A stretch of 40,541 nucleotides of DNA from Protoeuglena noctilucae (GCA_958009085.1 OY253669.1:1736001-1776541); one strand, 5' to 3'; shown: positions 37 through 40,541, counted from the stretch's first letter. Numbers and translations: made by a program. The notes: generated by a model not told the origin, from the sequence alone.

Positions 37-2353
37 TGACACGGACGTTCTCTTCGACGATCACGGCTTCCTCCTCGACCAGGCCGGGCCCCGCAGCCCC
101 GCGTCACTGCGGGCGTCGGCATCCCCCCGCGCCGCGCCCCACGCCCGCCCCGCCACGGGCCCCCCGGGCCCCTCGCCCCGCCACTCCGCGCACTTCGCGG
201 ACGCAGCCCCGGCGCACCCGACCGCCGCCGCCGTGCGCGTGGCTTCCCCGCCCTCGCCCCAGCCCCTGCCCCCGTTCTCGCCCCCGCTCCCCCTGGTCGT
301 CGCACCCGCGAGCCCCGCCACCGCCCCCCGCGCCTCCCCCGCCGCCGCCCCGGCCCCCGAGTCCCCCCCTACCCTGGTGGTCTTTTCGGGCGCGACGGCC
401 TTCAACACGGTCGCGGCGTCGCTGCGCGGCCTCACCACGCGCGTCACGCACGTCCTTCCGGTGTCGGACGACGGCGGCTCGACGGCCGAGATCGTGCGCG
501 TGCTGGGGGGCCCGGCCGTGGGGGACATCCGCTCGCGCTGCCTGCGCCTGTCGGACCGCAGCGACGACGAGGGCCGCGCGGTGGCTGCCCTCTTGGGCCA
601 CCGCCTCCCCGGGACGTCCGCGGCTGAGGCGAAAGCGCAGTGGTACGCGATCGTGGAAGGGGACCACGAGCTTTGGCGCGGGGTGTCAGAGCCCTACAAG
701 CACACCATCCGCGCCTTCCTGGTCCACTTCCAGGCCAACATCATGCGGCACTCGTCCGAGCGGTTCGACTTCCGCAACGGAAGCGTCGGAAACTTCTTCT
801 TCGCGGGGGCGCGCGTCTTCTTCCGATCACTCGAGGTGGGGATGCAGTGTTCGGGGTGGGCGGGGGCTTGTGCAGCCGCGGTGCCCTGGTGTTTGCGTTC
901 AGTGCCACCCCCACTGCCACTCTCGCCCACACCCACATCCGCACCCTCACCCTCACTGCCACCCTCACCCTCGCTGCCACCCTCACCCTCACCCTCACTG
1001 CCACCCTCACCCTCACCCTCACTGCCACCCTCACCCTCGCTGCCACCCTCACCCACACCCTCACTGCCACCCTCACCCTCACCCTCACTGCCACCCTCAC
1101 CCTCGCTGCCACCCTCACCCACACCCTCACTGCCACCCTCACTGCCACCCTCACCCTCACCCCAGGCCGCCATTTTCCTTTTCTCCCGCGTCGCCCGCCT
1201 CCCTGAGGGCTCCCTGGTGGCCCCGGCCATCCTCACCGAAGAGCGCATCACGCTGGGGGCGGAGCTGGCTGACGGCACCTTCATACGGGGGCAGAACGCC
1301 ATCTCGCACCCGCCCCGGGGCCACGGCGGCGTCGAGGCCGTGAGGAAGGACCTGGAGGACCCCCCCATGCCTGCCCGTGTGCGACGCGTCTTTTACCTGG
1401 TGAGGCCCGGCGCCATGGGGGTACCCTCCGTGACACTGAGGGTGGTTAAAAAGGGCACAGGCCAAGGGCACGAGGAACGAGGGGGCTGATGAGGAAACGA
1501 GATATACTACCACCGACATCGCTGCGCATGCCCTCGTTGATCCGCGATGGGTCGTTCCGCCGATGCGCTCCCCCTCGCGCGCCCTCGCCCTCCGCCCTTG
1601 CCACCCCAAGCGCTCCCTGACCCGCCACCCCTCCTTTTCCCCCCGCAGTCCTCCGAGGGCACCCGCGGCGAGCACGAGGTCTTCCCCCGCGCCAACCCCC
1701 GCGTTCTGCAGCAATTGGAGTCGGCCGAGCTCATCGTCTACGGCATGGGGTCGCTCTACACCTCCGTGTGCCCCAGCCTGGTGCTGCGAGGCGTGGGGGA
1801 GGCCGTGGCAGCGCGGGCGTGCCCCAAGGTGCTCGTGCTCAACGGATCGCACGACAGGGAAACTACTTACATAGAGGGAGGCACAGAGGGAGCGGATGGG
1901 GAGGGCGGGCGCGCGTTCATGAGGGACATGGCGGCGGGCGAGGGGGGGACGGGCGCAGGGGCCGAGTTGGTGCGGGGGGCGGGCGGCGAGGGGCCCGGGC
2001 CGGCGGGTGGTGGAGAGAGCGCGGGGGCGGCGGGCGTGCGGCGGATGCGGGCGAGCGACGTGGTGACGGCCGTGGTGGACGCGCTCAATCGCCGGCACGC
2101 CCTGGGCGCGTCGTCGCTGTCCCACTCCCCTGGCGCCTACGTGACGGCGCTGGTGGCGCCCGAGGGCGGCGGGGTGGAGGTGGACGAGGAGGCACTGTGG
2201 GCCCTGGGGGTGCACCGGGTGGTGCGCGTCGCAGCGCACCCGGACGGCCGGGGCGGCGCCCTTTACGACCCCGACGCCCTCGTGGCGGCGCTGGGGGAGC
2301 TGGCGGGAAGGGGCGGCGCTGCGGGGGAGAGGGGCGCTTCGGAGGAGAGCTGA
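37..2353 (+). CDS. CofD/UPF0052 (YvcK/GlmR-like) family protein, 5'-partial; exons ~37-835, 1166-1399, 1649-2353
   Basis: Spliced translation has LVVFSGATAFN, HVLPVSDDGGSTAEIVRVLGGPAVGDIRSR, FDFRNGSVGNFFFAGAR and IVYGMGSLYTSVCPSL, typical of eukaryotic UPF0052 proteins. GT-AG sites keep the frame. Confidence 0.88.
903..1162 (+). repeat. Intronic degenerate hexamer array (CACCCT/CACTGC/CGCTGC)n
   Basis: Visible tandem hexamers in the 3' part of intron 836-1165; source of the spurious PSPSL/HPHC/TLT ORFs. Confidence 0.9.
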
Positions 2354-8400: not shown

Positions 8401-9413
8401 ATCTCATCACATCGCATCTCATCTCATCCCCTCTCATCTCCCCCCGTCCACCCCACCCCGCAGGCAGCTGGGCAGCTTCACGGCCGTCACCGTGCGCCGT
8501 GCCCGGACCGGCCCCACCGTGACGGCGTGGGGGACGGCGCAGGACGTGCAAGCGGCTTTGAACGAATTGAACGGGCGGACCCTCGCGTGAGTGGCAGCGT
8601 GGATGGAGTTGGGGTGTTGGTGTTAAGATGAGGGTGTTGGTGTTGACATGGCATGGCATGCCACCCTCGCGTGAGTGACGCATGCCGCCTATGCCGTGCA
8701 TATGCTCCGCTCACCCAACCTGTCTGTTGAAATAGCCGCCGTCTGAGCCGTGGCTGCACTGCACTGCGCTTCTCACTTCGCATAGCTCTTACCACCCCCA
8801 CCACCCTCACCGCCCTCACCGCCCTCACCGCCCTCACCCCTCTCACCACCCCTGAACCCCCCTCACCCTCACCACCACCCTCACCACCCCACCACCCTCA
8901 CCCTCTCCCACACCCTCACCCTCACCCCCCTCACCCTCACCACCCTCACCACCCCCACCACCCTCACCACCCTCACCACCCCCACCACCCTCACCACCCC
9001 TCACCCTCCCCATCCCCCCAGCGATGGCCTCGGCCCCGTCACTGTGCGCCGCAACATGGTGGTCGGCATGTGGGACTACGTGCCAACCACGGGGGAACTC
9101 AAGGTGAGCTCGATAATCATGGGTCATGGGCCATTCATGTATGTATATATGTATATATATTATGAAGGTCATGTCATGCATTGTCATGGCATTAACGCAT
9201 CTGTCACCTGCCATGTGCACATCTGCCTCTGCCATCGCCCCGTACAGTTGTGCGTCTGCAGTCGTGCATGTCTGTTGCCACGAGCGTTGTACCAGTGGCA
9301 TGTTCCATGATCCCATGCTTCACTGTGTTTCCCCTCTGCCGCAGCGTGTGGAGGTGCGCGGGAGGGGCGGGGAGCACAGGGAGGGGGGCGACGACGAGGG
9401 CGGCAGGGCGTGA
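5445..9413 (+). CDS. Multi-RRM-like RNA-binding protein, about 10 exons (start uncertain)
   Basis: Exons translate to RRM-like segments: LQVSNIPADIQAADVAAVFRVFGPVNHVHL, VAIRNVPESWGEDRLRDAL and AALNELNGRTL. Splice sites are consistent, including a GC donor at 6949. Confidence 0.65.
8790..9018 (+). repeat. Intronic (CACCCT/CACCAC/CACCGC)n low-complexity array
   Basis: Visible C/A-rich degenerate repeats just upstream of the acceptor at ~9021. Confidence 0.85.
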
Positions 9414-17103: not shown

Positions 17104-20100
17104 ATGTCCGACGATGAATTCGACTATGCCTTCGATGGCGAGGCGCGTTCCGGCGAGAACTTCCAGCGGCAGGTGGGGGCAGCGCCATGCCCCGCACTAG
17201 CGCCGCGCGTGCCATCCCCGCGGCCCCATTCCCGCGTGTCTCGCCCCGCAGTTCAAGGCGGAGCCCATGCCGGCGCGGCTCGTCATGAAGCAGTCCCTGA
17301 AGACCCCCTTAGAGTGCGTTTTAGAGGAGGAGGAGGTGGGCGAGGCTGCTGATGTCAACGGCGGGTCGCCACGCCAGCCGCGGCGCAACCAGGGCCGCAA
17401 AGGCGGCGCGGCGCCTCTCATCGCCGAATCGGTTACGGCAATAACGGCATCAGCGGCGGCCACCCCAGCCCCCGCCCTACCTCGCGCCCCCGCACCCCCG
17501 CCGGCCCCCATCCCTGCGGCAATCGGAGCGCCGGTGCGGGGCGGTCGGATCGCCGTCGCCGCCCCCGCCGCGCCCGTCGCTCCCCGCCCCGCCCCCCCGG
17601 ACGCGCCGCCACCCCCCGTGTTGCACTCGCGTGGGGCACCTGGCAAGGGGGCTGGGGCTGGGTACGTCGCTTTACTTGCATCGATGGGTGGCGCAGAGGC
17701 GAGGGCTCTGAGGGCTGGGCTCGTGGCGGTGCCACCTCGGGAAGCGGGGGTGGGGGAGAATGGGGAGGGTGGGGAGGAGGATGAGCTGAGGTGAGACGGG
17801 GTGCGTTGGGGTGGGACATGGCAAGGTGAGAGGTGGATGAGATGAGACGAGATAGGATATGATAGGTTGGGGTGGGTTGGGGTGTTGGGTGGTGGGGTGA
17901 GGGGGTGGGTGGAATGGGGTAGATGGGTTGTGGCATGGTGAGGTGAGGGGGTGGATGGAATGGGGTGGGATGGGATGGGAGGTGGCGTGGTGAGGGTGTC
18001 GTGGCGGTGTGTTCTTCTCATGTCCCCTTCTCCTCCATCTCTCCCATTCTCCATCTTCTATCCCATCTCATTCATCTCTCATCCATCTCTCCCCCATTCC
18101 CAGGCTCATGTCCCTGCGTGCGTTTGGCACCGAGGACCCCGGAGACGCGGGGGGGGCCGACGACGACAATCAAGCACACCACGATGCGTGGCAGGGGAGG
18201 GACACGGGAGATGCAAATGCACATGCGGAGTGGAGGGGACAAGAGGGCGTAAATGGTGCCGCAGAGAGAGACGCATCTGCGCACCCGCATGCACATGCAC
18301 ATGCACATACACACGGTGTCGTCATGCCAGCCCCCGCCCCCCCCCCGCCCTCCGCCGACCTGGGGGGCTTCGGCAGCGTTGACATGGCCGTGTGGTCGCC
18401 CGTGGCAGCCGCGAGGGGCGCGGCGGCGGCGCAGAGCGGCGGGGATGGGGATGGGGTGGTGAGAGGCCATACCGCACAGGAGTGTGGGGGGTTAAGCGGA
18501 GCATCGGAGGGGGATGGGTCGGAAGCTGCCGGGGCGGACGAGTGGGGAACACTGGGAGCGGTGGTGCTTGACTTGGGTGAGGAGCAAGAGCAAGAGACAT
18601 CCGAGGGGACGGGGGAGTGGCCGGTGCGACCGGGGTTGCGCGGCACTATCACCAAAGGGGGTGGTGCGCCACCCCTCCCCAGCCACGGCCAGGGCCGCAA
18701 TCGGGAACCCAGCCGGGACGCCAGCTACCCCGGGAGCACCGCGAGTGCTCCCAGCGGCGCGCAGTCACCGCCGTGGTCGGCCGCCGGTCACCCGGCCGCC
18801 CCCCTGCACCTCGCCCGCTCCGCCCTGCTCTCCCAGCAGCGCCGGGGGTCGCACAACTCCCCCTCCGCCAGCGCCGCGGCTTTGGGGGCCCGGGTGCCGC
18901 CTTTTGACGATGCAGCCTCCCCCGGCCGCCGCCCGGCTACTAGCGATGACGGTGCGAGGGGGCCGAGGGGGGCGGCTGCTGCGATCCTCAGGGCGTTTGG
19001 GGGCGCGCCCGGGCCGGGAATGGCGCCGCGCGAGGGCGAGGGGGGGGTGCCGGTGCCTGGGCGGCGGATGAGGTTCGATTCCGGGGGCCCTGGGCTGCAG
19101 GCGGAGGGGAGCGGGGCGTCGTTGGACAGCGTGGGGAGTGCCGCGAAGGGTCGCATCAGCGGCGGCGGGGGGCTGAAGGGGACGGGGAGGCGAGACAGGA
19201 AGCAGTCGGGTGAGGAGGGGGGGGGTGCTGTGGTGTTGTATACTATGCTAGTGAATATCGCACTGCGATGTACATGAGTCCCTCTTGGTAACTCTCTCAT
19301 CCACCCTTCCATACCCTCTCGCATCTCCTGGTTTCACTCGCTTCTCCTAACATCACCACTCAACCCCACCCCACCCTCTCTCCCCCCCAGTCAAGTTCGC
19401 GGATGACGACGCCCCGTCCCCCGCCCCCTCCCCCGGCCCCCCTCCCGCCCCCTTCTCCCTCAGTCGGCTGGGCAGCGATGCCTTGGAACAGCGACGCGCC
19501 GCCGCGATGGCAGCCGGGTCTCCTGCCACCAGCCGCGGCACCAGTCGCCCCAGCAGCAACCAGAGCAGTTGGCGGGGCAGCCGATTGGGCAGCTCGCCCG
19601 CTGTCAGTCAGACCAGTCTGGCTATGGGGAACGCGGGGGACACGGATGAGGGGGACGGGGGGAGGGGGGCGGGGAGGGGAGGGGCGGGGGCGCTGGGGGT
19701 GTGGAGGGAGAGGGAGGGGGAGGGGGTTGGGAAGGAGGGTGATGGTGGCAGGGTGAGGGGGGCGGTGGGTGGGGGGTGATGTGTGGAGGGGGGGTGACAT
19801 TCACATAGGATGCTTGTTGACTCCCTGTGTCGACAATTCTTGGCTTTTGTATTGCATTGTGTTCATATGATTGCACGCTTAACCACCGCCGCCACCACCC
19901 TCGTCTTCTTTGCTGCCGCCACACCTTGGCTCTGTGCTTACTCGCCACCATCGCTTGCTGCTTTTATGCCTTTATTCTTTTCTCACTCGCCACCCCCGCT
20001 GTGCCGCACTGTCGCATCACTGCCCTATGCTCTCACAGGCACCCCCCTTTCGTGCTTACCATCGCAGGAGCCCCCCACCCCCGCTCTGGGTCCCATGGCC

Positions 20101-23100
20101 AGCCCCCGCATGCAAATGGCGGCGGAAGAGGGGTTCTTTCCCGTGGCACCGGGTGAGGTTGATGGTGATGGGGGGGGTAGTGGTGGTGGGGATGGTGGTG
20201 GTGGGGTTGATGGATGGTGGGGGTAATGGTGGGGTGATGGGGGTGGGAGGTGGTGGTGGGAGTGATGGTGGGTGATGGTGGGGTGACAGTGATGGTGGGG
20301 GTGATAGGGAGGGTGGTAATGGTGGGGCGGACAGTCATGCGATGGTGGGAGTGATGGTGATGCGGGCAGAGGGAAAGTGATAATCGTTTTTTCACCTTCT
20401 CTCATACGCAGCTCATCACTACCCCACCCGCACATGTCGCTTACTGCCACCCCCTCCCTCCTCCGCCCCCCCAGGCACCCCCCGCTCGGCCCCCCCCCGC
20501 CGCCTGCCCCGCCACAAATCAGACGGCACTGCCATGGCGGATCTGCTGGAGGTGGGGGATGCACAGCGACACACTGTCTAGACTAACATAACATAGATGC
20601 ACTGCCATGGCGGATTTGCTGGAGGTGAGCATGCTGGGTGCACAGCGACACACATGGCATTGCACGACACGCACATGCACCCCGTGCCCCTCTCAGCCAC
20701 TCTCACAACCGCACTCCACCCCACCTCACTCTCACTCTCACTCTCAGTCCCCCCACTTCCCCCCACAGTCTCCTGACCCCCATGCTACCCCCGACGACAT
20801 CCACATGCACCCCGTCCCCCGCGGCCGCCCCGACGCCCGCGGCTCCGGCGCCCGCACCCTCTCGGTGCCCGGCAAGCGCATGACGGCGAGGGACCGGAGC
20901 GTGAGCAGCCGCAAGCAGGGGCCGGGGAGGGCGGAGGGGGGCGGCAGGGATCGGGATAGGGATAGAGACAGCGCGACGAGCCGGGACGGGAGCGAGGCGG
21001 CAGCAAGGAGGAGGTACACGGGTGAGGGGGTGGATTTATGTGGATGTTTGGAAATATGGATGTAGCTATGATAAGTATAACCATGAAGATGGATAGATGG
21101 ATGGGTGGGTGGATTGGTGGATGGATGGGTGGGTGGTTGTGCGTGGGTGAGTGGCGGGTGGGGCGGGTGAGTTGCCGGTGCGCGTTTGATCATGAGGTGT
21201 GCAGTGAGTGCATTGATTGCGATGCGACGCGAGAAAGCATGCGTGCGTGTCTGCGTCCCGCGTGAGAGGCTGTCACGAGCATCAACTACCTCGCTCCACC
21301 CCTTTCAGGCGGCTATGAGACGGGCAACCCCCACCGCCGCAAGTCCACGGCCGTGGCGTCGCGGAAGTCGAGCGGCTGGCACCTGCCGAGGGTGAGAAGG
21401 GTGATGGCATATGGGGTGATGGGATGAGAGTTAACGTTGCATATCAACACTCACCCACTCCCTTTATCCACAGGACCTCCCCGGCGATCATCCCGACATG
21501 CTCGACCTCCCCGACGACTTTGGGGACGGGGCAGAGTACCCGGGGGACGAGTGGGCCAGGGCGGTGAGAGAGGGGTGCATGCGTGGCGGTGCATTTGGGG
21601 GTGCATGCGGGTGCATGCGGCGCAACCAGTCGTGCCGTCCACCCCACCCCTCCCCTCCCCCTCCCTCTCTCACTCACAACCAGTACAATCACACTCACCT
21701 CACATTCCCCTGCCCCATCACTCACAACCAGTACAGTCACACTCATCCCCCCCACCCCCTCTCCCCTCTCACTCACAACCAGTAAACGTCACACTCACAT
21801 GCACACCCCCTCCTCCCCATCTCTCCCTCAGAACCAGGATTTGCGCGCAAAGGCCGCCCCCCGCCGCGAGGGCGCCTTCTCCCCCGTCACCTCCGCCGCG
21901 GCATGGCAGGACCTCTCCTCCCGCGACATGTCGCAATTACTAACAGCCGACGTGGTATTTGAGAACAGCCCCGGGGGGTGCATGGGGATACTGGTGTCGG
22001 TTCTGACGCCGCGGCTGTCGGAGCCGGCGATGGTCGAGGAGAGGCGGAGGCTGTTCGGGGTGGCGAGGATGAAGCTGGACGACGAGGATCCCATGCACAT
22101 GTGAGGGATGCTGGGGGTGTGGGGGGATGTGCTATGAGTGGTGTTCTGTGCTGTGCGGTTGACACCTCTCATCCCTCCCCCCCCCCCCAACACCCCCAGG
22201 CGCGTGCTCTCGACCGCATGGCAGCTGTACATGCATCACACCCACCCCTCCCATCTCTCACCCCTCATCTCTCTCTCTCCTTCTCTCTCTCACCCCCAGG
22301 CGCGTGCTGACCACCGCGTGGCAGCTGTACATGAACGTGGACCGACTGCCCCCCCGCATCGGCACTCACTGGGAGGTGCTGGGGTTTCAAAGGGACGACC
22401 CCGCCACGGATCTCAGGGCCGCGGGGTGAGTGGGGATGGGGGTGTGACATGGGGTGGGGGGGTTGATGGGGATGGGGGGGTGAGCGTGTGTGGGTGGGTG
22501 GGGGGGGTGTGTTGAGGGGGTGTGAGGGGGGGAATGGATGAGAGGAGTGATGGATGGGAGAGTGGTGGGTGGGTGGGTGAGAACGGGAGGTAGAGGGAGT
22601 GCGGTGTGAGCGAGGGGTGTGGTGCATGGATGCTACGTGCTGGCGGCGCTGGGACCGGCTTTGCAACGCACGGCTCACCACCCCATCCCCCTCCCACCCT
22701 CACATCCTCACTCCCCTGTCTCAATAACCCTCCTGTCTCCATCCCCCTCATATCTTCATATCTTAATACCCCTATCCCCATGCCCCCCCAGGATGCTCGG
22801 CCTTCTCCACTTCCTCCACCTGGCTGAGCTGAGCCTCAGCCGCGCCAGCGAAATGCTCGAGTTCTCAAGGGACAGGTAAATGGGGTGGGGTGTGTGATAA
22901 CTGGGAATGTGAGATGATAAAAGTGGTTATGATTGTGTGTGTGAGATGCTCGAGTTCTCAAGGGACAGGCGAGTATTACTGGTTGGGTGTGTGAGATGAC
23001 GGGAGTGGTATTGGCTGGGTATGTATGCGAGATGCTGGAGTTCTTTAGGGACAGGCGAGGGGTGGGGTGTGTGATGACTGGGTATGTGAGGGGATGAAAC

Positions 23101-23663
23101 ATATCAAACACACCCACACCCCCACCCCCACCCCCACCCCCACTGCCACCCCCACACCCACACCCACCCCCACCCATCCTCATCCCCACCCAACCCCCCC
23201 CAGTTCCTTCGGCTTCCCCCTCGCCGTGGTGAGCATCAACGCCACCAAATGGGCCATGGACGTCATCCGATCGGGCGCCCTCAATCGCCTTGCTATTCGG
23301 CACCGTTCGATGGAGCGGGCGGCCGCGCTGTTCCAGGCGGGGGCGGTCTACACGTTTGTGGACAAGTGGAGGAGGGGGAGGTTCACCATGGCGCAGGCGA
23401 GAGGAGGGGTGGGGTTGTAGGGGTGTGGGGATGGGGGTGACGGTGGGGGTAGCAGCGTGGGTGATATGCGGGGGTGGTATTGCGACGCGTGTATTGGAGT
23501 CCCATCTCACCTCAATGCCTCACCTCATCTCCCCCCATCCAACCCCCTGCAGTCCGGCTTTGTGATGCGTGACGTGGAGAGCCAGGCCAAGCGCCACCCC
23601 CGGGAGATGGTCGCAAGGGCACTCGACCGGGACTTCCAATTCGAAGTGGTGGCGCTGTCATAG
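17104..23663 (+). CDS. ELMO/CED-12 domain protein (ELMOD-like) with a long low-complexity N-terminal region; many exons
   Basis: C-terminal exons give [29 protein letters not shown] and FPLAVVSINATKW, the ELMO domain core. N-terminal exon structure is less certain. Confidence 0.82.
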
Positions 23664-25399: not shown

Positions 25400-26398
25400 A
25401 TGGCGGCGCCCCGCGCCGGCTGTCCGGTTGGCAGCGTCGCAATAGGGCAGCCGTTTCCACGAGCCTCCTGTGCACTCTGCGTTTCAGAACTGCGCCGGCG
25501 ACATCCTTCGGTGCCAATCTCACGGCCGGCTGTGTTATCTCCACGCCTGCGTCCCCACGCGCGGCTCTGCACGTCTGCAGGTACGCGAAGCTGCAGCGAG
25601 ACCTCCCGAGCTGTGCGCGCTGCGACCACCCGCTCTGATTAGCCCACCCCCACCTCGACGCAGCTGTCTCAGACCCCTGCTCGTCCGGCTATTCCCCCGC
25701 GGTGCGCTTCCCCGGGCCGCCCGACCTCCACGGCCTGCAGCCGCGGCAGCGGTGGAACGCCAACAGCCTCGCGTATGTCGGGGACGCTGGCAAGTTGCAT
25801 ACCCTCCTCCCGCTCAGCTGCGCTCCCTGCCCGCCGCGCTGCGACGCCGGGCGACACGCGTGCCCTGCTCTCCCCGCCCCGCAGTGTGGGAGCTCTTCCT
25901 TCGATCGGAGTTCTTTTACCCTCCCCGCGCCTCCGGTCTCATCCAGTCCTCCGTCGTGGCCATGGCCCGGGCCGAGGCGCAGGATACCCTGCTGCACGCG
26001 ATGCAGGACTCCCCGTTTCTGACGGAGCACGAAAAGGACGTGCTGGTGAGGGGCGGTGCCTTCATGCTTGTCGCAGGCGGGTGGCTGTTGCTGAGATGCG
26101 ACCTGGCGGCAGCTCTGCCCTCGCCCACTAGTTAATGTGCTGTGACTTGTATGTGATGCTGGTCCCAGTGCCTCTCTCGCAGCGTTGGGGCACGCGGGCA
26201 GAGGTGCGGCCGCCCCGGGGCCTCCCCCGCCGCACCTACAGCAACGCCACGGCGGTGGAGTGCCTTTTCGGGTTCCTGTGGATGACCGATCACGCGCGGC
26301 TGAGGGAGGTGCTGCAGTGGTCGAGGGATGCGCTGGGGGAGGGCGGCGGGGCGGGGCGAGCGGACGGGGAGGTGGCGGGGGGAGAGGCCGGGGAGTAG
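25400..26398 (+). CDS. Mini-ribonuclease III (MrnC/RNC3-4-like), probably plastid-targeted; 4 exons
   Basis: WNANSLAYVGDA|VWELF, ARAEAQ, LTEHEKDVL|RWG and YSNATAVECLFGFL motifs; no dsRBD seen; Arg/Ser/Ala-rich N-terminal extension. Confidence 0.9.
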
Positions 26399-26502
26399 CG
26401 TTGATGTGTTTACGTGCGACTGATGCTTAAATCACGCCACAGTTACAGCGACATGCGACCGGTGTTACTGCTGCCATCGCATCACGCCGCGCTTTGCTAG
26501 TG

Positions 26503-27255
26503 CTAGTGGTGGTACGGCTCCCCACGAAGGATGGTCCACGCTCGATAGATCTGCTCCAGCAGCACCTGCGCTCGCGAAACACGCCTTGCGTGCAAATGTG
26601 ACGCGGCTGCTTGCATTTGCATCCGGACAACTGCGTGAAATCCCCTGCTCTCTCACCAGATGCGCGATTTGGTGGTTCAGGACGCACTTGGACAGCGACA
26701 GGGATCGGTTCGACCGCTCGACAACTGCCTTGCCGTGGCCAAAGGGGCCGCCGATGCAGAACTGCGGTTGCGGACGGGAGCCGCGCGATGCCGGGCCGCG
26801 CATCGCCGCGATGAACGCAAACGTTTGTCGGCGGCAGCACGCACTACCACGCGGCCGCGGCCCTCGTCTCCTGCGCCCGCCAGCAGGGCCGCGAGTCCCT
26901 CGCTGCTGATCAGCTCGCCCCGCTCGTCCAGCCGCACCACCAAATCGCCCGGAGTTAGCAGCCGCGCAACGCGCTTTCCCTCGTCCTCCTGCTGCCGCGC
27001 CGGGTCGCGCACGTTGCCCGGGTTCGGCCGCACGACGTCGGCAGAAAAGGATGTGTATCTCTGAATGCGGGACTCGTACTCGCGTGCGAGCGCGTCGGCG
27101 CCGGGCAGGGCGCCCCGGCTGACCGTGATGACGGAGATTGGGACGGCGCGCACCGCCCGGGCTCCCTGCGCGGGGCCAGACGCGCGAATCCTGCACGAGC
27201 GGCGCGGCGCAGGTGCGCAGGGGACGCGCACCCAGGCGTGCGCCCCACCGCCCAT
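26503..27255 (-). CDS. rlmH: RlmH-like SPOUT rRNA methyltransferase (23S m3-pseudouridine-1915 family), probably organellar; 3 exons
   Basis: VVRLDERGELISSEGLA, FCIGGPFGH, LSLSKCVLNHQIA and LLEQIYRAWTILRGEPYHH-stop. A TGTAA (chlorophyte poly(A)-signal-like) lies on the minus strand at ~26443-26447. Confidence 0.93.
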
Positions 27256-27370
27256 CAGCGCGGCGCGGGTCCTTCACGGACGCACTGCATTGTCTGCCAG
27301 CTGTGCAGTGCAGAGTGTCTTCTAGCAGAAGCGCGTGCCCCGTCCAGGTTTAACGGCACTGTGTCGGAGA

Positions 27371-30300
27371 CTGGCAAGGTCGACCTTGCCAGGGGGGCAA
27401 ACGTCGCTCTTCGTCAGGACCGGGGGGCACCCCCTGGTCCCTGCTCGGCAGTGGGACAGGCGGGGCTGAAAGAAGTCATTGGAAAGGTGGTCATCTGGTT
27501 CAATGGCGTCTATTCTATGGGAGGCTAGCTAGCCGCGCTTGTGTTGGCAGAGACGCCTCAGATGGCCATGGGCATGGATGTGGAACAAGCGTGTACCTCC
27601 CTCTCTGCCCCTCTGCCGGCCGAGATGTTGTACAAATTCCTCAGCGCCGTCATGTCCATCACAACCCCGCACCTCCACGCGCAACGCAGACGATAGCACG
27701 ATCCACGTCCTTTGCAGCACCGCCCCCCCCATGCGTATGGTGGCGTGGATGTCGGGCAAGAGAACCGATGTCGGGCACGGGTCCTCTTGCCTGACAACGA
27801 CGCCGTCACGCGCATGGAACAGGCGGTCAACAAGCGACATGGGTGGCGCTGCCATCTGTCGTCATATCCATCGCGGTGATTACGCTCCCCATCGCCCTCT
27901 CATCAACCCAGGACCGCTGCCTCACCGCAGTCCCCCTACCCACCGTTCCCCTAAAAGCGACGCAATTCAAGTGCGGTGATCAAACGACCAGAACACGGCG
28001 GCGCATGTGGCGCCATGTAAGTCACCACGGCGTCGCCATTCGGCCACAGTAGTAGCCACAGTAGTAGAGAACTTGGATCGCCCCGCTTCTTGGGGAGAAC
28101 GGTGGCAGGGCAGGCTGTACCCAGGAGACACAGCCGTGCCCTGCTGTGGAGAGGACAACAGGGATCGCCGCTGTCGCCCGTGGCGGCAGAGGCACTCCCC
28201 GTCATCCTGGCCACAAGAAGCACCGCAGTAACCACTGTTGTACAGTCCACCCGTGGGACCGCGTCGCTTGTCGAGAGAAAGAGAACGGTGGGAGGGTGCC
28301 TTGCACGACGCAGACGGCGGTTCAGTGTTGGGGGGGCGACAGCGACATGCCAGGCACGCCGTGGCGCGAGCATCCTTGTGGGTCCTGGATGTGACACGGC
28401 AGGTCCAGAGTACCCACCATGTCGCGCCCAGCACCCAGAACGAATGGTCGCGCCACGGCGTGTCCGTGACGGTGATCGGGGGCCCCGACGGTCGTCTCCC
28501 CTTTGGCTGGCCGACGCACGCATCCTGGGGGCAAGGGGCGAGGCGCGGGACATGTGGGGGGTGCAAGGGGCATAAAAGGTCGCACGGATGAACTCGCACA
28601 GTTGGGCGGGTGGCATGACGAAGCAGCGATGCGGCATGGATAAGTAAGACACTCATAGGTCCACTTGTTTCCCTCGCAAAGCGGCGGCGTCCCTGTTGCC
28701 CTGCATACCGTCGTCGTGACCATCAACATGCTCATCCAACATGCCCCCATCATCGAGACGCAGCTCACCCTCGGTAGGTACATCGCCACTGACACCACCG
28801 CATCTTGCGTGACCATCCGACGGCGACGTTGCGCTCCCTCTCGTTGACAACATCGTCCACCATTTGAGGCCAGACGCCCTGTTGAAGGACGGGAAAAGCG
28901 TTCCGAAACTACGGGGATGCGAGTGGACGCCGTCGCGGTGGTCGATACCATCACGATGGCATCAACTTGCACCTCCATCTCCCCGGAAACACCTTTGTCG
29001 GCCTTCTTCGGGACATCTGGCCTGACATGGTCCACGATGCTCCCCACGAAACGGCGCTCCCTTACATGAGTGAAGCCTTGCGTGTTGTGCAGGCGGTGTC
29101 CTGCGGCAGAGGGGAGGGTGTGGGTGTGCGTGGGCGAGAGGGGGGCTGGTGGACGGGGCATGTGAGTGAAAGGGTGGTGGGGCAGAAGCGAGGGCATGTG
29201 TGTGTGCGACAGCGGGGCTGCCGGATGGGGCGTGTGGCCGCCGACAACACTGCTAGCCCTCGAAGCCACCGCAGCTGTCCTCCCCTTGACCAGAGATGAC
29301 GGCGCAGGCGAGGCCCCACTCACCGTGTCACGGTGTGGTGGCGCCTGCTCCAATCCCACCTTCCGCCCGGGGCGTTCGTCTGTCGATTCGTTGTTCCCAC
29401 AATGATCATCGTGAATGCCGGCGTGGCTGCAACCACGGTGGTCACATACACGCCGGCTTGGAGAACGATCATCGTGGGAACGACGAGTGGATTAGCGGAA
29501 GCCCCCGCGTCACCAGGGATCGTGCAGAGCCTGTTGTGTTCGGGCCTACCCAGGGGCTGGGTACCCATGCCACCACGGCAGTTGCAAACGGCGATTCGTG
29601 GCGCTCTCACCTTCTCTTTCCGTCAATCGCGCGCCCTTGGCCCACGCCTCTTCCCCGCCCCCACCCGCAGTCTGTCACCTCCGCATTACGCGTCGATGAC
29701 GAACTCTGGGCAAGGGCAGAAAGAAAGAACGGGCCAAAGGCGGCGACACCGAGCCAGGCACCTCCAACGCCACTCCATCCCAACCCCACACAACACGCTC
29801 ACCTCTCCCCCGACCGCCGTCGTGGCCGTGCCTGCTGCCGGGAGTGTGGAACGGCAGCAGCCGCCGCGGCTCTACGCGAAGATAACTACTCGGCAAAGCC
29901 AGGGGGCGTGGCCTCGTGGCTCAGCGAAGTGGTCATGCTCGTGTGGAGCCGCGGTGGCTGCTGCGCCCGTGCTCCTGACTGCGCCGGGCCGCCCGGGGCG
30001 GGCCAGCGGACAAGCGCTCCCTGGCCGGGCTGGCCGGAGGCGGGGACGCACTGGTGCTAGTGCGTATCGGTCTGGCACAGGGTAGGTGGCCTGCCCCAGG
30101 CACAGACGGAGTCGCCCTAGCTCACGCACCAGTCGGGCCCCGCCTCTGCCCCCACCTTCATCCCCAAGCTCGCCACCGCCTCCTGCAAAGGGGGGCAGGG
30201 GGGCTCGAGGCGGTGCCGGCGCTAGCTCGTAAAGGGCGATGCGGGCTAGGGGACGATGACAAGGCGGGTTTCGAATCGTCCTCCCATCCCCGCCTTGAGC

Positions 30301-31760
30301 ATACCCGCCGGTCCCCCAGGGGGGCCCATTCCCCGTGGGGCCCACTCTTCCCGGAACTTCTTGGGCTGCAGGTGGAGGGCGTGCACGTGGAGGCGGTGAA
30401 CCGCGACTCCCGAGACATGAAGCTCTGCGCGTCTGCACTGGGACGCGTGGCACGTGGCACTCACCGCGCCGGGGCAGTGGTTGGTTCGCGGTGTGCAGAG
30501 CGTTGAAGGCGCACCGCAGGACCAACGAGCAACGCTTCACCCTCTACAAGCTCCCCGACTGCCAGCCGCGCGCGTTGGAGGCCTACGTGTCATTCAACAT
30601 GCAAGAGGCGATCGTCCAATACCTCGTTAACCTCAAGAACATCACCCGGGCGCCGTTCGGGGACCCGTGCCGGGGCACAGGATCTCCGTGCACAGAGCAT
30701 TCCAGACGCCCTGTGCACCGCGAACCACTGTTCCGGCGCGGGTCCCGGAAAGGCAACCCGGTGATGTTCTTGAGGCTCATGAGGTATCTGACGACCGCCT
30801 CCAACGGCGCGGCTGGGACTCAGGGAGCTTGCGCAGGGCGTACGTCGGAGAGCATCGCCTTCTAAGGGGGATCCTCGGCTTTCCCGCAAGCGCATGAACG
30901 CGCGTGCCGGCGCCAGCAGCTGCGCCGGTGCAGATCACCTAAGCAGGTCCCCGAATCTCGCCGTGCTCTATGTGGCGAGCTTCATGAGGAAATCCCCGTC
31001 TGCGTTGACGGACCACTGGGTGTCCAGCAAGAGCCCTGCTTGACACGAGGGTTCTTGCTCGACACCCAGTGGTCCATGGACGCAGACTTGGCTTTTCTCA
31101 TGAAGCTCGCTTGAAGGAGCCCCGGGCCGTCGACCTTCGCTAGTACATTGCGTCACAGATCCCGTCGCCTTCGACAACCGCATGCATGGCGCTGTCCCAT
31201 AACGCCTGCAGGTAGGGGTCGTGATGGGACGCCGCTCGCGGGGTCGATGGGTCTGGCGGCCGACCTGGAGTTGCGCACGACGCAGCGGTGGCATGTCAGG
31301 GGGAAAAGTGAGCTTAACGCACGCTTAGACTGGCCGGACTGCTGGACTACCCTACCCTAATGGATTGGCGTTATGCGCGCGGCCGCGCATGTCACCGGCA
31401 CGGGGCACCAATCCATCGCAGATCCCCGGTCGTCGCCTCACTCCGTCCGCACCAGGAAACGAAGTGCGGCGTCCCGGAGCCCGTTAAATTTCAGAGCGAC
31501 TCGCTCTGAAACCTAACGTCCACTCAGGAGGCCCGATGCATCGCAATCTACGACCATGATCTGCGGCCACTTGGATCGTCGGGCATCGTGTGACCCCGGA
31601 GTGGACGCCAGGTCCTGGAGCGACCCGCAGACCTCGTTGGCTGTGGCAACGCGTCCGTCGATCTGCGACAAAGGGCGCGCTGGCGTCACGGTCGCGCAGA
31701 GACGTGCGTTGTAGTGGGATGAGCTGCGGGGGGCAATTTCGTCCTCCACACGCGCTCCGC
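27371..31760 (+). ncRNA. Putative polycistronic hairpin (pri-miRNA-like) or structured non-coding RNA locus with at least 8 long imperfect stem-loops
   Basis: Inverted-repeat arms paired by eye at 27729-27817, 28353-28464, 29368-29507, 29841-29975, 30032-30150, 30540-30838, 30975-31110 and 31156-31255. No recognisable protein or multi-exon coding structure. Several stems have more G-U-compatible differences on the + strand. Confidence 0.6.
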
Positions 31761-31799
31761 CCGCTCCCAGCAAGATGGCTGTGTTGACATTTCACACAG

Positions 31800-32165
31800 T
31801 TCGGTTCCCGGGCGCCTCGTTCGTGAACGCGCCCCCCTGCTCCATTTGCCCCGTCCGCACCTGGAAGCGGCGTCCGTTCACGCGCTTCACTCGTCTCCTG
31901 CTGGCAGGCCAGGTCGCGAATGTTCCCCGAGTCCTGCCGCACGACCTCGGCCGAAAAGGCCTCGCGATCACGCGCCAGCGCGTCCACGCAGGGACGGGCG
32001 CCTTGGCGGGCGCCCCACCGCCCATCAGCGCGGCACAGGTCCTGTACGGACGCATTGCGTAGTCCGCTGGCCGTGCAGAGCGTCTTCAGCGCGTACGTCG
32101 CCGTCTACCTTCACGTTCCAGGCGAAGAGACTGGCGAGGTCTGCCAGGAGCGTGGGGGCCCAAAG
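31800..32165 (-). pseudogene. Degenerate partial duplicate of rlmH exon 1 and its upstream region
   Basis: 31880-31960 aligns to ~26968-27050 (FSAEVVRQDSGNIRDLACQQE vs FSADVVRPNPGNVRDPARQQE). GCGCCCCACCGCCCATCAGCGCGGC occurs at ~27240 and ~32010, and GAGACTGGC(A/G)AGGTC at ~27367 and ~32127. The copy has an internal deletion and frameshifts. Confidence 0.85.
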
Positions 32166-32312: not shown

Positions 32313-35300
32313 ATGATTCTGTACGGCAAAGCCTGGTGGGGCATCCCACTCCTGTTCCGCGTCTATGGCTCAGCGCTCCCGCGGGCCCAGCCCTTCGCCA
32401 TCATCGCCGTGGTCGAGAACGTCCTGCTGACGCAATTTGCAGGTCCAATTGCTATTCTTGTGCTCGTACGCTGCACATCTGTGCTCATACTTTCTCTGTG
32501 GCCGTGCCGCTTTCCGCGACGCCGCCCCCGCGATTCGCGGCTGCAGACAAGCGGGCCGAGCTCTGGTGGCGGCACCCGTATCCCTTCGCGGCTTTCGCCT
32601 GGGTCGTCGGATTCGTGCTCGTCTTCCGGAGCAATAATGCATATACGCGCTACTTCGAGGCCCTGAGCAGCTTCCACAACATGACGGGCGAGTAGCACAG
32701 CATGCGCATCGTGCACGCCGCCAGCTGCGCCATCCCCGCCGCCCCTCCTCCCCCGCCCTCGCTGCGACGGGCAGGACGCTGGGCACACGGTGACATCCCA
32801 CGCGTTAATATCCCCGTCTGCCCCGCGCTCCCGCAGGTCGCCTGACGGCGCTGGTGACCATGGGCCTTTCCTATGACCTCGACTTAGAGACGCAGAAGCG
32901 CCGGGAGGACCATTTCCGATTCCAGCAGCGCCTCATCCACTCCGCCAGCCTCTTCCTGGGACTGTCAGTGCAGGTGTGCCTCCCAAGCGCATGCGCTCTC
33001 ACCCACTCCCACCCTCGCACTCAACCTCACCTCTCCTCACCCCTCACGTGTTCTCCCCATCCTCAGGCCCTGCGCCTGGACTGGGACCTGGCCAACGTCG
33101 TGCAGCACGAGGGCTCCAAGCCTCCCCCCCTGGACACCTTAGTCCTTCCCGATGTGGGCCGGTTCAACCGCAACCACTGGGTGTTCCGACCACGCGACAT
33201 CGTGCTGCTCAGGTGACATGACGGGGCAAGCAGGGCTGCCCACATAGACTAGACTGTCATGTCGCTTTCTGTGACCCACGGATGTGCCACGACTGTCACG
33301 ACTGCGCCTGTAGTTTGACGCCGGTGGCCTTGCTCGTACACATGGTGTACATGTTGCATGCGGCAAAGATGAACAGCCCATCATCCACCCATCCCCATGC
33401 ATCTCTCCCGCCCCCCCAGGTCCAGTCGCGAGGACCGCCGCAAGTTCAACCAGGGCCTCCCCGTGCCCGTGCTGGGGGGACTGCTCCCCGAGGAGGCCAG
33501 CGAGCTGAGGGCGGGAGCCACGAGCGGGGACCTGCAGGACGACTTCTACGACTCCAACGCCGCAGGCGAGGGGGAGGGGTGGGGTGGGTGATAGCAATTG
33601 AGTGAGGCAGGCGAGGGGGAGGGAGTGGGGGTGGGGGTGGGGGTGATAGCAAGCGAATGTGGCGGGCGAGGGGTGGGGTGGCATGTGGAGTGCAGCACGG
33701 GTTGCACCAAATCCTGTAGAAGTTCCCGCTTGATCGTGTCTCTCATCCCACGCCACCCTCTCCCCGTCTCTGCAGAGCGCCCCAGCGTGGCTGCCATGTG
33801 GCTCATCGACGTGCTGACTGAGAGGCGGGCGGAGGGGGGACTGGGGGTGCCGGCACCCATACAGACTAGGATGGACCAACAGCTCGGGGAGGTGAGGCTG
33901 TCTGGTTGTCGTCGTGACTGGGTGTGGGACCGTTGGGTGTGATTGCATCGGTGTGCACGCATGCGTGCGTGCATGCGTTCGGTCACTCCCACCGTAGCCA
34001 TGGCTCCACTCCCTTATCGCCAATCATGTTTCCCACTTCATGTGCTATTCTAGTGCAATCACTCCACACCTCATCCCTTCCCCCCAGGTCCTGGTGGCGT
34101 ACGAGCAGTGCCGCAAGATCGCACAGATGCCCTTTCCCTTTCCAACCACTCAGTTCCTGCTCGTCATCCTCGTCATCTACGCACTCTCGACGGTGAGACA
34201 CGGCAGGGACTGCGGGCGGGGGGCTAAGGGTCAAAATAGCTGGCAGCGTGAGACTGGGGGACGGAGCAGGTGGGTGCAAGGGGGGTGCGGTGTGGCGCAG
34301 GAAGGCTTTGTGTGGTTGTTTCGTCTCCAGTGGTCGCATTGGTGCTATCCTAACGACCATGCTGTCCTTGTCCCCGCAGCCCATATTGATGGCTGGGTGG
34401 GTGCCGTCGAGGTGGCTGTCGGCCGTGTTGACTTACATCGCCGTCGTCACCTACTGGAGCGGTAAGCAGGGGTGATGGGCATGTATGACTCGCATGCTGC
34501 TGACTGTTGTCACGCTCTGGAGTGGTGAGCACGGGCGTCGATGTGGTTTGCATGCTTTAGAGCCTCAATAGTAATACTAAGGCGATGTGCTGCTTTTGGC
34601 TCCCATGCGTGGCCGCTCCCACTCAAATGCCCATCTCCCACGCCCATGCCCCTCGTCCCGTGTCTCCAGTCAATGAAATTGCGAGAGACATCGAGGACCC
34701 TTTCCTATACGACCCCAACCACCTGCCCGTGACACGACTGCTGGTGAGCAATGGTGCATGCAGATGACATGGGACTGCTGGTGAGAGGGGACGCATGCAG
34801 ATGGCACGCCCCTCCACGTGCATCCATCCATGCACTCACACCCATCCACCCATCCACTCTGCTATCATGCACTCACATATCTTATCTCTGTTACTCACAC
34901 GCAGTACCAGTTCAACGAGCGCCTGATGCACCTGTGCCGGGCGCGCAGCCGCGTCATCCCCGTGTCTCGATTGGAGGGTCGCGAGATCGAGGGGCTGGTG
35001 CGGTTCGGGCAGACCAAGGCATTCGAGACGCACGGGAGCAGCCCAGAGATGCTCAAGGCGAGGGCAAAGGCTGCGACTGTGGTTGCAATGCAACCGTGAC
35101 TGTTTACTGCCAAGGTCTTCCCCACTGCCAGCCCCACCCCCACTGCCACCCTCACGGTGCACGAGGCTCCTTTTGCTGGGTGGTAGTAATCTTGGCCGAT
35201 TGCAATCCCCACCGCTCTCGCTCCTCGTCCCCGCAGCGTTACATGGCTCAGGTGGACAGCAGCTTCGCCAGCCGCGCCCCCGTGCACCCGGCAGCCGACG

Positions 35301-35839: not shown

Positions 35840-38257
<2,418 letters not shown>

Positions 38258-38943: not shown

Positions 38944-40294
38944 ATGGGCGTCCGGGTTGCAGAGGACACCCGGAAGCGCGCAGCGCAGGCGCTCCCCGCT
39001 CTTGCAACTCGGATTTGCCGGTTTTATGTAGCCTTTTCCATCGTTTCGCGTCTCTCGCTTTTCGCCCGCCCCACCGCCGAGGCTGCCCCGCCCCCACCGC
39101 AGTCGCTGGCTCCCTCCAGTGACCCCGCCTACCTCAACACGGGCGGGGCGGGGACGGGAGTCCTGCAAAACGCGGCAGCATATGGCGGGGCGTACGCAGG
39201 AGGCCTGGGGATGGGCCAGGAGGTGAGGCTCGGGGCGGGTGGCGCGCTTGCACCCATGCATTGCTTGGCGTGGTTGGCTGGCACCATCCGCAGCCCCGCG
39301 GTTCGCGATTGTCGTCTCTTGCTTTCTCTGCCCGCAGGGATGGCCCATGGGTCACTACTACGACCCGGTGAGTGCTCCCTGTCCCCCGCTTGCCACGACA
39401 AAGCTGCCCTTGCACTCCCTCCCCTGCCTTTCTATGAACGTCCCATGGATCTCCCCATGCCACACATGCCAGGTATCTCAATCAGTACCGCCATTCACCC
39501 TCCTGCTCCCCCGCAGTCATCATATGCGTCGCTATATGCCAGTCAACTCGACCCCTACCACAGCCTGCGTGCCCGGGACATGGCCGCGTCGATGATGGGG
39601 TGGGACGCATACAGCATGGGCATGTACTACTCGGGTGAGCAAAAAACCATGGGAGTGACCGTAGGGAGTGTCCTCAGGGCTGTGTACGTGCATTTGTGTG
39701 CATGCGTTTGTGTGCCTCGTGCCATGCGCTGCACTGCCACGGCCCAATATGACCCTGACCATTGTGACCCTGTACTATTGTTACCCTAACCTCTCTCCTC
39801 CCCTCCCCCCAAGGCCTCACTTCCCCCACTCCCTTACAACTAGCCATCACGACATTTTGACACTCCCCCTCCCCCCCCCCCCCCAGGCCTCACTCCCCCC
39901 CTCCCCTACGGCTACCCAGGCAACCCTTACGCCCCACCCCTGCCCCTCCTCCCGGGCACCGCGCTGCCCTCGGCGCCCCCAGGCATGGCGCCAGAAACGT
40001 GGGCGGCTGCGCTGGAGTCGAATTCAAATCTCGCCATGCTCAAGGAACAGAGGGGGGCGGGGGCGGGGAAGGGGGGGGCAGGTGCAGGTGCGGTGGTGGT
40101 GACGGTAGAGTGACATGAGTGGTATAGATGGGCACACGCAATGACACACATAACATACTATCTCACACCCGTCACGTCTCCCACTCTCCCACGCGTGCTT
40201 CTGCCCACCCCCCGCAGCTGCTGCCGCCACCCCCGCTGAGCTGGGGCAGGGGCGGGGCAGGCGCAACAACGCAGGTGGTGGGGGTGCGGGTTAG
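38944..40294 (+). CDS. Hypothetical Tyr/Pro/Gly-rich low-complexity protein, about 6 exons, apparently ending at or truncated by the telomere
   Basis: Exons ~38944-38988, 39103-39222, 39338-39367, 39516-39634, 39887-40087 and 40218 onward join in frame (SDPAYLN..GWPMGHYYDP..PLPYGYPGNPYAPP). No folded domain recognised. Confidence 0.55.
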
Positions 40295-40541
40295 GGTAGG
40301 TTAGGTTTAGGTCATTAGGGTAGGTTTTTAGGGTTAGGGTTAGGTTAGGGTAGGGTTAGGGTTAGGGTTAGGGTTAGGGTTAGGGTTAGGGTTAGGGTTA
40401 GGGTTAGGGTTAGGGTTAGGGTTAGGGTTAGGGTTAGGGTTAGGGTTAGGGTTAGGGTTAGGGTTAGGGTTAGGGTTAGGGTTAGGGTTAGGGTTAGGGT
40501 TAGGGTTAGGGTTAGGGTTAGGGTTAGGGTTAGGGTTAGGG
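40291..40541 (+). repeat. Telomere (TTAGGG)n; variant repeats 40291-40355, perfect array 40356-40541 (31 units)
   Basis: Visible directly, with the G-rich strand running 5'->3' to the window end. Confidence 0.98.

Follow-up and report, generated by a model that had tools for sequence, protein, structure and literature searches.

What kind of locus is a chromosome-end interval in which one long hairpin follows another? The question is raised by positions 27371-31760 (the island) of a 40,541-nucleotide (nt) stretch of Protoeuglena noctilucae DNA (GCA_958009085.1 OY253669.1:1736001-1776541), which we analysed as a whole and refer to as the window. A model reading of the sequence alone (the original prediction) had seen in the island a candidate polycistronic microRNA (miRNA) precursor or structured RNA, transcribed from the + strand. 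We find in the island a single spliced and apparently non-coding minus-strand unit, possibly two, extending from about 32090 to 27952. Our favoured reading, which we hold tentatively and with a little less than even confidence, is that of a spliced minus-strand non-coding RNA with at least nine inverted-duplication stems which, if RNA interference (RNAi) is present in the cell, would be diced to RNAs resembling small interfering RNAs (siRNAs), much as in a hairpin RNA (hpRNA) locus.

The serial local hairpins proved to be real. Each of the 11 elements that had been proposed was folded with RNAfold and compared with 100 dinucleotide shuffles on both strands (Table 1). Seven were strong and lay far below chance, with z-scores of -5.8 to -15.9 on the + strand and -4.0 to -17.4 on the minus strand; the 22-bp palindrome was perfect as described, and three elements turned out to be weak (27415-27443, 28102-28147 and 31156-31255). 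The folding window 28100-28219, around the second of these and its neighbouring stems, has z -8.7. Additional hairpins that had gone unnoticed lie at 28836-29054, 31496-31628 and ~29649-29728, the first of them also recovered as a palindromic self-match at 28833-29057 (E 4e-11). As had been claimed, the stems are unrelated to one another: stem versus stem comparison revealed no shared sequence. No second copy of any stem was found in the 40.5 kb window, and the two arms of a hairpin are 66-89% identical. Just outside the largest hairpin, 30464-30503 and 30706-30741 form a second complementarity register, so that part of the right arm of this hairpin can pair with either of two upstream segments, a hint that the duplications arose in a more complicated way.

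Hairpins of this kind are restricted to the island. Tiled BLAST of the whole window gave eight palindromic self-alignments at E<=1e-5, all of them within 27729-31518. A gapless inverted-repeat scan returned six island matches with a score >=14, versus a shuffle mean of 0.01 (maximum 1, n=100); the six matches at this score outside the island were all pairs of C-rich and G-rich low-complexity tracts with loops of 182-389 nt. Folding of 120-nt windows on the minus strand, in the island and in three control stretches, likewise set the island apart: z<=-4 was reached by 9 of its 120 windows, versus 3 of 436 control windows.

To which strand does the RNA belong? RNA evidence consists of contigs from four metatranscriptome runs, all of one study, and the splice and exon model is drawn from 15 of 19 joints and 32 of 83 contig pieces and is incomplete. 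Contigs cover most of the island, and an interval that had been described as devoid of any recognisable gene carries spliced transcripts. All five canonical island introns among these joints read CT..AC on the + strand and GT..AG, with C-rich tracts, on the other; the RNA is therefore minus-strand, and the predicted strand has to be reversed. Three of the five introns are supported by two to three of the four runs and two by a single run. The exons form two chains, 32090 (at least 32057)-31861 / 31662-31396 / 31205-30581 and at least 30166-29611 / 29426-29324 / 29100-28769 / 28524-27952. At 27636-27902 the four runs gave no RNA contigs, a gap that is uninformative and from which we draw no conclusion. 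No RNA/DNA letter differences (editing) are listed for these contigs, which drop rare variants.

The hairpins are located within this RNA. Single contigs span whole hairpins (30718-31201 spans 30975-31110, 29611-30064 spans 29841-29975, and 27961-28523 spans 28353-28464); that is, long inverted repeats lie within one transcript, as in an hpRNA. The same contigs, the last of them joined to 28768 and beyond, are examples of contigs bridging adjacent hairpins. Strong structure is exonic: exon E3 carries the two largest hairpins (30540-30838 and 30975-31110), exon E4 carries those at ~29649-29728, 29841-29975 and 30032-30150, and none of the 11 windows lying wholly in introns reached z<=-2. Minimum free energy folds of the modelled spliced RNAs retain the hairpins. 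At the tip of hairpin 30975-31110, one contig (run X10) skips the 72 nt of 31017-31088, with non-canonical ends (TG..CT) and 3 nt of microhomology, and another run (X9) reads through without a skip; the skip may reflect a jump of reverse transcriptase on the stable stem, an artefact of assembly or a variant that carries a deletion.

The strand bears directly on the view that the island is a + strand polycistronic precursor of canonical miRNAs in the style of Chlamydomonas. Part of this view stands, since several hairpins share expressed contigs and their geometry permits miRNA-like duplexes. Under the plant and algal miRNA annotation rule (foldback <=300 nt, 21-nt duplex), each of the 11 stems (46-299 nt) contains 21-nt windows with no more than 5 mismatched and 3 asymmetric bases; in 30975-31110, for instance, 45 of 51 windows qualify. 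This is structural permission only. The stems also lie on a transcribed single-stranded precursor, as contigs run over them and splicing is that of the minus strand. It is this strand that speaks against a + strand precursor, together with the lack of a + strand G:U preference among arm mismatches. Across the whole window, no match reached an Rfam gathering score, so that membership in a miRNA family did not emerge; miRNA-family look-alikes at 30997-31088 were all sub-threshold, the best being mir-769 with 38.7 bits, short of its gathering score of 57. Moreover, stems of such length and heterogeneity are more apt to be diced imprecisely. The green-alga frame fares no better. The Chlamydomonas telomere repeat is TTTTAGGG. 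The window is a chromosome terminus and closes with a (TTAGGG)n array at 40282-40541, a repeat that the available part of PMC3622300 assigns to haptophytes, glaucophytes and most ochrophytes, with TTTAGGG assigned to chlorophytes; on this assignment a typical green alga is an unlikely host. Taken together, we regard the + strand miRNA precursor as very improbable.

Where does the minus-strand RNA start? Exon E1, together with 70-90 bp on its upstream side (31870-32150), duplicates in diverged form the 5' end of the RlmH-like methyltransferase gene to the left of the island (26969-27390; blastn identity 81.7% over 82 nt and 80.4% over 107 nt), and the frame of the copy is broken by a ~120-nt deletion. 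Judged by this match, island transcription starts in a diverged duplicate of the RlmH-like promoter and first exon. The RlmH-like transcript, whose contigs terminate at 27313/27323, apparently begins about 50-70 bp downstream of the perfect palindrome at 27371-27392. This palindrome has a degenerate counterpart in the duplicate, where left 27369-27385 aligns with right 32129-32147, and is likely a promoter-proximal element and not part of the hairpin RNA. At the apparent start of the RlmH-like transcript, one contig (run X10) contains a backward joint from 27322 to 27070, two extra letters included.

We then consider whether the spliced RNA encodes protein, that is, whether the island holds one or more orphan protein-coding genes with exons that are palindromic by chance. 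Five canonical introns would suit such genes, as would open frames of up to 297 codons in a spliced model and 389 codons in genomic DNA. But the long frames run across the introns seen in RNA, and their Arg-, Cys- and Trp-rich products match only themselves (a protein search with the 389-aa open reading frame (ORF) returned itself alone); nor do the spliced models contain a protein-like frame that respects the introns. None of the 20 ORFs tested in and around the island gave a Pfam family, except for matches confined to two flanking genes. Exon periodicity is weak, with GC periodicity of 0.01-0.27 in eight island exon segments versus 0.24-0.51 in ten flanking coding exons. Spurious long frames are common at 65% GC: the window holds 77 ORFs of >=170 aa, and of the 48 long ORFs tested outside the island just two have a Pfam family. 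For this reason the contrast with 'wall-to-wall coding' surroundings fails as well; genes of the window are broken into short exons, with introns of 83-244 nt by RNA contigs. One stretch stands apart: 30480-30659, which makes up the left arm of the largest hairpin, has strong codon-like GC periodicity (0.40 / 0.88 / 0.53; GC3 0.88 and GC2 0.40), though in a + frame and hence antisense to the observed RNA. The arms of 30975-31110 have a similar pattern, and these codon-periodic arms resemble remnants of coding sequence in antisense or sense orientation relative to the RNA. On this evidence the RNA is apparently non-coding, and orphan genes are scarcely credible.

Relatives of the coding-like arm were sought through its 77-aa translation (P0001). 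A word-indexed search of longer proteins gave no match, the best score in the ESM Atlas was 0.78, below a useful level, and neither P0001 nor P0002 matched anything in IMG/VR. With phmmer, 1.84 billion protein representatives yielded six matches to P0001, one of them the ORF of the locus itself. We took the other five as spurious: the four inspected (P0004, P0006, P0007 and P0008) are all internally repetitive, and P0006 and P0008 share 28-32% identity with P0001. JGI metagenome contigs contributed three short partial matches of 16-40 residues, none of which is a relative. At the nucleotide level, no 21-mer from the 11 hairpins recurs with <=2 mismatches elsewhere in the window.

Long terminal inverted repeats with short loops and without coding capacity are also the form of foldback transposons and miniature inverted-repeat transposable elements (MITEs). 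Several old insertions of different families might have been absorbed later into non-coding RNA exons, and a perfect 8-bp direct repeat (GCGCTCCC, at 28831-28838 and 29054-29061) indeed flanks the 215-bp palindrome 28839-29053, one of nine hairpins. However, at least one perfect 8-bp repeat among nine loci is expected by chance with a probability of ~0.15 (null 1.7% per locus). Flank matches of >=6 of 8 were found in three of nine hairpins, including 28839-29053 (null 44%), and the other eight hairpins are at chance; target-site duplications as a mark of MITE or foldback insertion were thus rejected. In addition, no two stems have sequence or termini in common, and all are single-copy within the window. 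We consider a transposon origin unlikely.

The mechanism that we favour, an hpRNA-like precursor, can be outlined as follows. A duplicated housekeeping promoter, that of the RlmH-like gene, launches a spliced, apparently non-coding minus-strand RNA, the exons of which are largely built of old, mutually unrelated, local inverted duplications, so that the RNA bears at least nine long hairpins of 80-300 nt. Given a Dicer-like enzyme in the cell, the minus-strand stems would be its substrates and would give rise to a heterogeneous population of siRNA-like small RNAs; the locus would then be of the hpRNA type and not a group of miRNAs cut out with precision. The locus is a good candidate, as yet unproven, for a source of small silencing RNAs, and is best filed as a candidate with the hairpin-RNA kind.

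Several observations weigh against this reading. Transcription, splicing and structure of the locus are shown, but that the stems are diced we purely infer, and the same holds for any target; neither a parent nor a target gene of any arm was found in the window, among the 1.84 billion protein representatives or in metagenome and viral contigs. Continuity across 30166-30581 depends on low cover in a single run, so that the two exon chains may belong to one RNA or to two. The transcript models do not include hairpin 27729-27817, which occupies the gap between their 3' end and the promoter of the RlmH-like gene, and splicing removes the right arm of hairpin 29368-29507, which sits in the 3' end of intron 29427-29610. 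The runs offer no sequence variation for covariation analysis. Among the 108 mismatched arm positions of seven hairpins, 26 are G/T (wobble on a + RNA), 24 are A/C (wobble on a minus RNA) and 58 are neither, so the mismatches are not 'often G-U compatible' on the + strand as had been stated. With no G:U bias on either strand, nothing indicates selection on pairing, and the mismatch pattern is what neutral repeats at the DNA level would predict. The arm identities resemble the ~81% of the RlmH duplicate, which fits a common old origin followed by drift. As the arms are drifting and have no wobble bias, any silencing role would be weakly constrained or already fading.

The same pattern is at home in a different explanation, in which the locus is transcribed junk. 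Here, the inverted duplications and the RlmH 5' duplication would be relics of one or a few complex rearrangements, produced by template-switching repair in a region close to the telomere. Transcription from the duplicated promoter would be incidental and its splicing opportunistic, and the hairpins would have no role at the RNA level. The island lies only 9-13 kb from the telomere, and the frame-broken RlmH fragment is about as diverged as the arms, so that a single era of origin fits; the absence of wobble bias on both strands points the same way, as does the failure of our searches to find a homologue, target or conserved family. Yet the structure is exonic, not intronic; moreover, none of the eight palindromic self-matches lies in other introns or intergenic DNA, including the 8 kb nearer the telomere. 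Stems so long on an expressed RNA are diced in any RNAi-competent cell, functional or not, and we count this against the junk explanation too. It is the chief rival to our reading, a real possibility to which we give considerable weight, although we lean against it.

A bolder version of the hpRNA reading would make the island a subtelomeric 'hairpin archive'. The stems, in two arms of which codon periodicity persists, would be inverted copies of fragments of different genes (selfish, viral or since lost), carried on a spliced non-coding RNA with a borrowed housekeeping promoter and diced to siRNAs that silence those genes in trans. We think this doubtful. If true, it would be an hpRNA or PIWI-interacting RNA (piRNA)-cluster-like memory locus in a unicellular marine alga; whether that group has miRNA-type regulation at all is still disputed.

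How does the candidate compare with known systems? Polycistronic miRNA hosts, among them mir-17~92 of animals and clusters in plants or algae, carry short (60-100 nt), conserved, precisely cut hairpins. The island shares their layout, several unrelated hairpins on one spliced non-coding RNA, but its hairpins measure 80-300 nt and are unconserved. Active hpRNAs are usually near-perfect inverted repeats, whereas the island arms are already 11-34% diverged. The hpRNA loci that give rise to endogenous siRNAs in Drosophila, as far as the consulted sections of PMC10317233 describe them, are otherwise close: long inverted repeats on one RNA, stems far longer than a miRNA hairpin, several per locus and an evolutionarily young or fast-decaying look, to be set beside the coding relics in two island arms. 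They differ in that for the island neither parent nor target of an arm was found, siRNAs we infer, and the host is a unicellular marine alga. Chlamydomonas also has long-hairpin miRNA and siRNA precursors, processed by DCL3 and mostly located in introns and untranslated regions of coding RNAs, according to the accessible portion of PMC4817775. They resemble the island in being long imperfect hairpins in ordinary RNA polymerase II transcripts of a unicellular alga, unconserved across lineages; the island hairpins, in contrast, are exonic and belong to a spliced RNA that is apparently non-coding, and the lineage of the island is probably not green.

The haptophyte Emiliania huxleyi has, on the evidence of an excerpt of PMC4839659, gene models for AGO, DCL-like, RDR and HEN1 as well as hairpin-derived small RNAs, with 18 predicted miRNA precursors whose hairpins of 71-252 nt are mostly intergenic and have no relatives in miRBase. 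Like the island, they come from a GC-rich marine phytoplankter, in the same size range and without miRBase relatives; unlike it, they are dispersed single hairpins defined by small-RNA reads, and our comparison is one by description only. This RNAi precedent would bear on the locus only if its host proved to be a haptophyte. In diatoms, canonical miRNAs were not found, as stated in the portion of PMC4156623 at hand.

The use of hairpin-derived small RNAs by non-green marine phytoplankton is an unsettled question, and an expressed, spliced locus with at least nine strong unrelated stems is a compact substrate for testing endogenous hairpin dicing and its precision. It also documents how a new non-coding RNA can arise, close to a chromosome end, from a duplicated housekeeping promoter and first exon. 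Should small RNAs be absent, the island would be a clean case of inverted-duplication debris that folding-based miRNA predictors miscall in GC-rich genomes.

Table 1. Features of the island and its surroundings. Positions count from the first nucleotide of the window; paired z-scores are for the + / - strand, and runs are the four metatranscriptome runs.
Feature	Position	Strand	Evidence
Hairpin	27729-27817		z -8.0 / -7.9; 89 nt; palindromic self-match E 1.5e-10
Hairpin	28353-28464		z -9.2 / -8.7
Hairpin	29368-29507		z -8.6 / -8.5
Hairpin	29841-29975		z -12.0 / -8.3
Hairpin	30032-30150		z -5.8 / -4.0
Hairpin	30540-30838		z -14.0 / -17.4
Hairpin	30975-31110		z -15.9 / -14.7
Additional hairpin	28836-29054		219 nt; z -9.46 vs 200 shuffles
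Additional hairpin	~29649-29728		window 29620-29739 z -7.0
Additional hairpin	31496-31628		z -6.73
Palindrome, perfect, 22 bp	27371-27392		z about -5
Weak element	27415-27443		z -2.2
Weak element	28102-28147		z -3.4 / -4.0
Weak element	31156-31255		z -2.3
Exon E1 and promoter-proximal region	31861-32150	-	contig 31861-32057 spliced to 31662
Intron	31663-31860	-	GTGCG..CAG; joint 31662>31861 in 3 of 4 runs
Exon E2	31396-31662	-	contigs 31394/31395-31662 joined to 31861; contains hairpin 31496-31628
Intron	31206-31395	-	GTGAC..CAG; joint 31204>31395 in 1 of 4 runs, shorter side 28 nt
Exon E3, lower limit uncertain	30581-31205	-	contigs 30581-30784, 30627-31016, 30718-31201
Exon E4, upper limit uncertain	29611-30166	-	contigs 29611-30064, 29929-30166
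Intron	29427-29610	-	GTGAG..CAG; joint 29426>29611 in 1 of 4 runs, shorter side 30 nt
Exon E5	29324-29426	-	joints; left arm of hairpin 29368-29507
Intron	29101-29323	-	GTGAG..CAG; joint 29099>29323 in 2 of 4 runs
Exon E6	28769-29100	-	joints; contains hairpin 28836-29054
Intron	28525-28768	-	GTGAG..CAG; joint 28523>28768 in 3 of 4 runs
Last exon E7	27952-28524	-	contigs 27952/27961-28523 joined to 28768; hairpins 28353-28464, 28102-28147
RlmH-like SPOUT methyltransferase gene, left neighbour	26425-27323	-	PF02590 E 1.6e-11, 1.2e-8; expressed, spliced
RlmH-like gene exons	26425-26562, 26654-26761, 26845-27323	-	RNA contigs
Right neighbour gene	from ~32210	+	weak sub-threshold bestrophin match
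CofD match	1541-2350		Pfam E 2.9e-13
3-dehydroquinate synthase C-terminal domain (DHQS_C) match	37268-38047		Pfam E 5.7e-28

The window as a whole is GC-rich (~60-74% throughout, cited as 65% overall) and is present in marine metagenome and metatranscriptome runs. To the left, the RlmH-like gene is adjoined by an expressed + strand gene at 25500-26364 with three introns and without a Pfam match. A protein search with exon 1 of the RlmH-like gene itself retrieved its own cluster and nothing else. Two of the seven + strand introns inspected are of the GC-AG type (25789-25883 and 32687-32835, donors GCAAGT and GCGAGT), and RNA joints support both; together with the telomere type, these introns are the basis on which we judge the lineage. 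At the chromosome end, degenerate units (TTAGG, TTTAGG and GTTTTTAGGG) precede the terminal array. C-rich (CACCCT-like) and G-rich microsatellite-like tracts occur at 869-1204, 8768-9037, 19409-19700, 23092-23468 and elsewhere; where opposed C-rich and G-rich tracts lie 180-390 nt apart, they produce low-complexity inverted-repeat matches that are unrelated to the island hairpins. Finally, a 55-nt G-rich unit forms a tandem pair at 33568-33677, its two copies being 76% alike.

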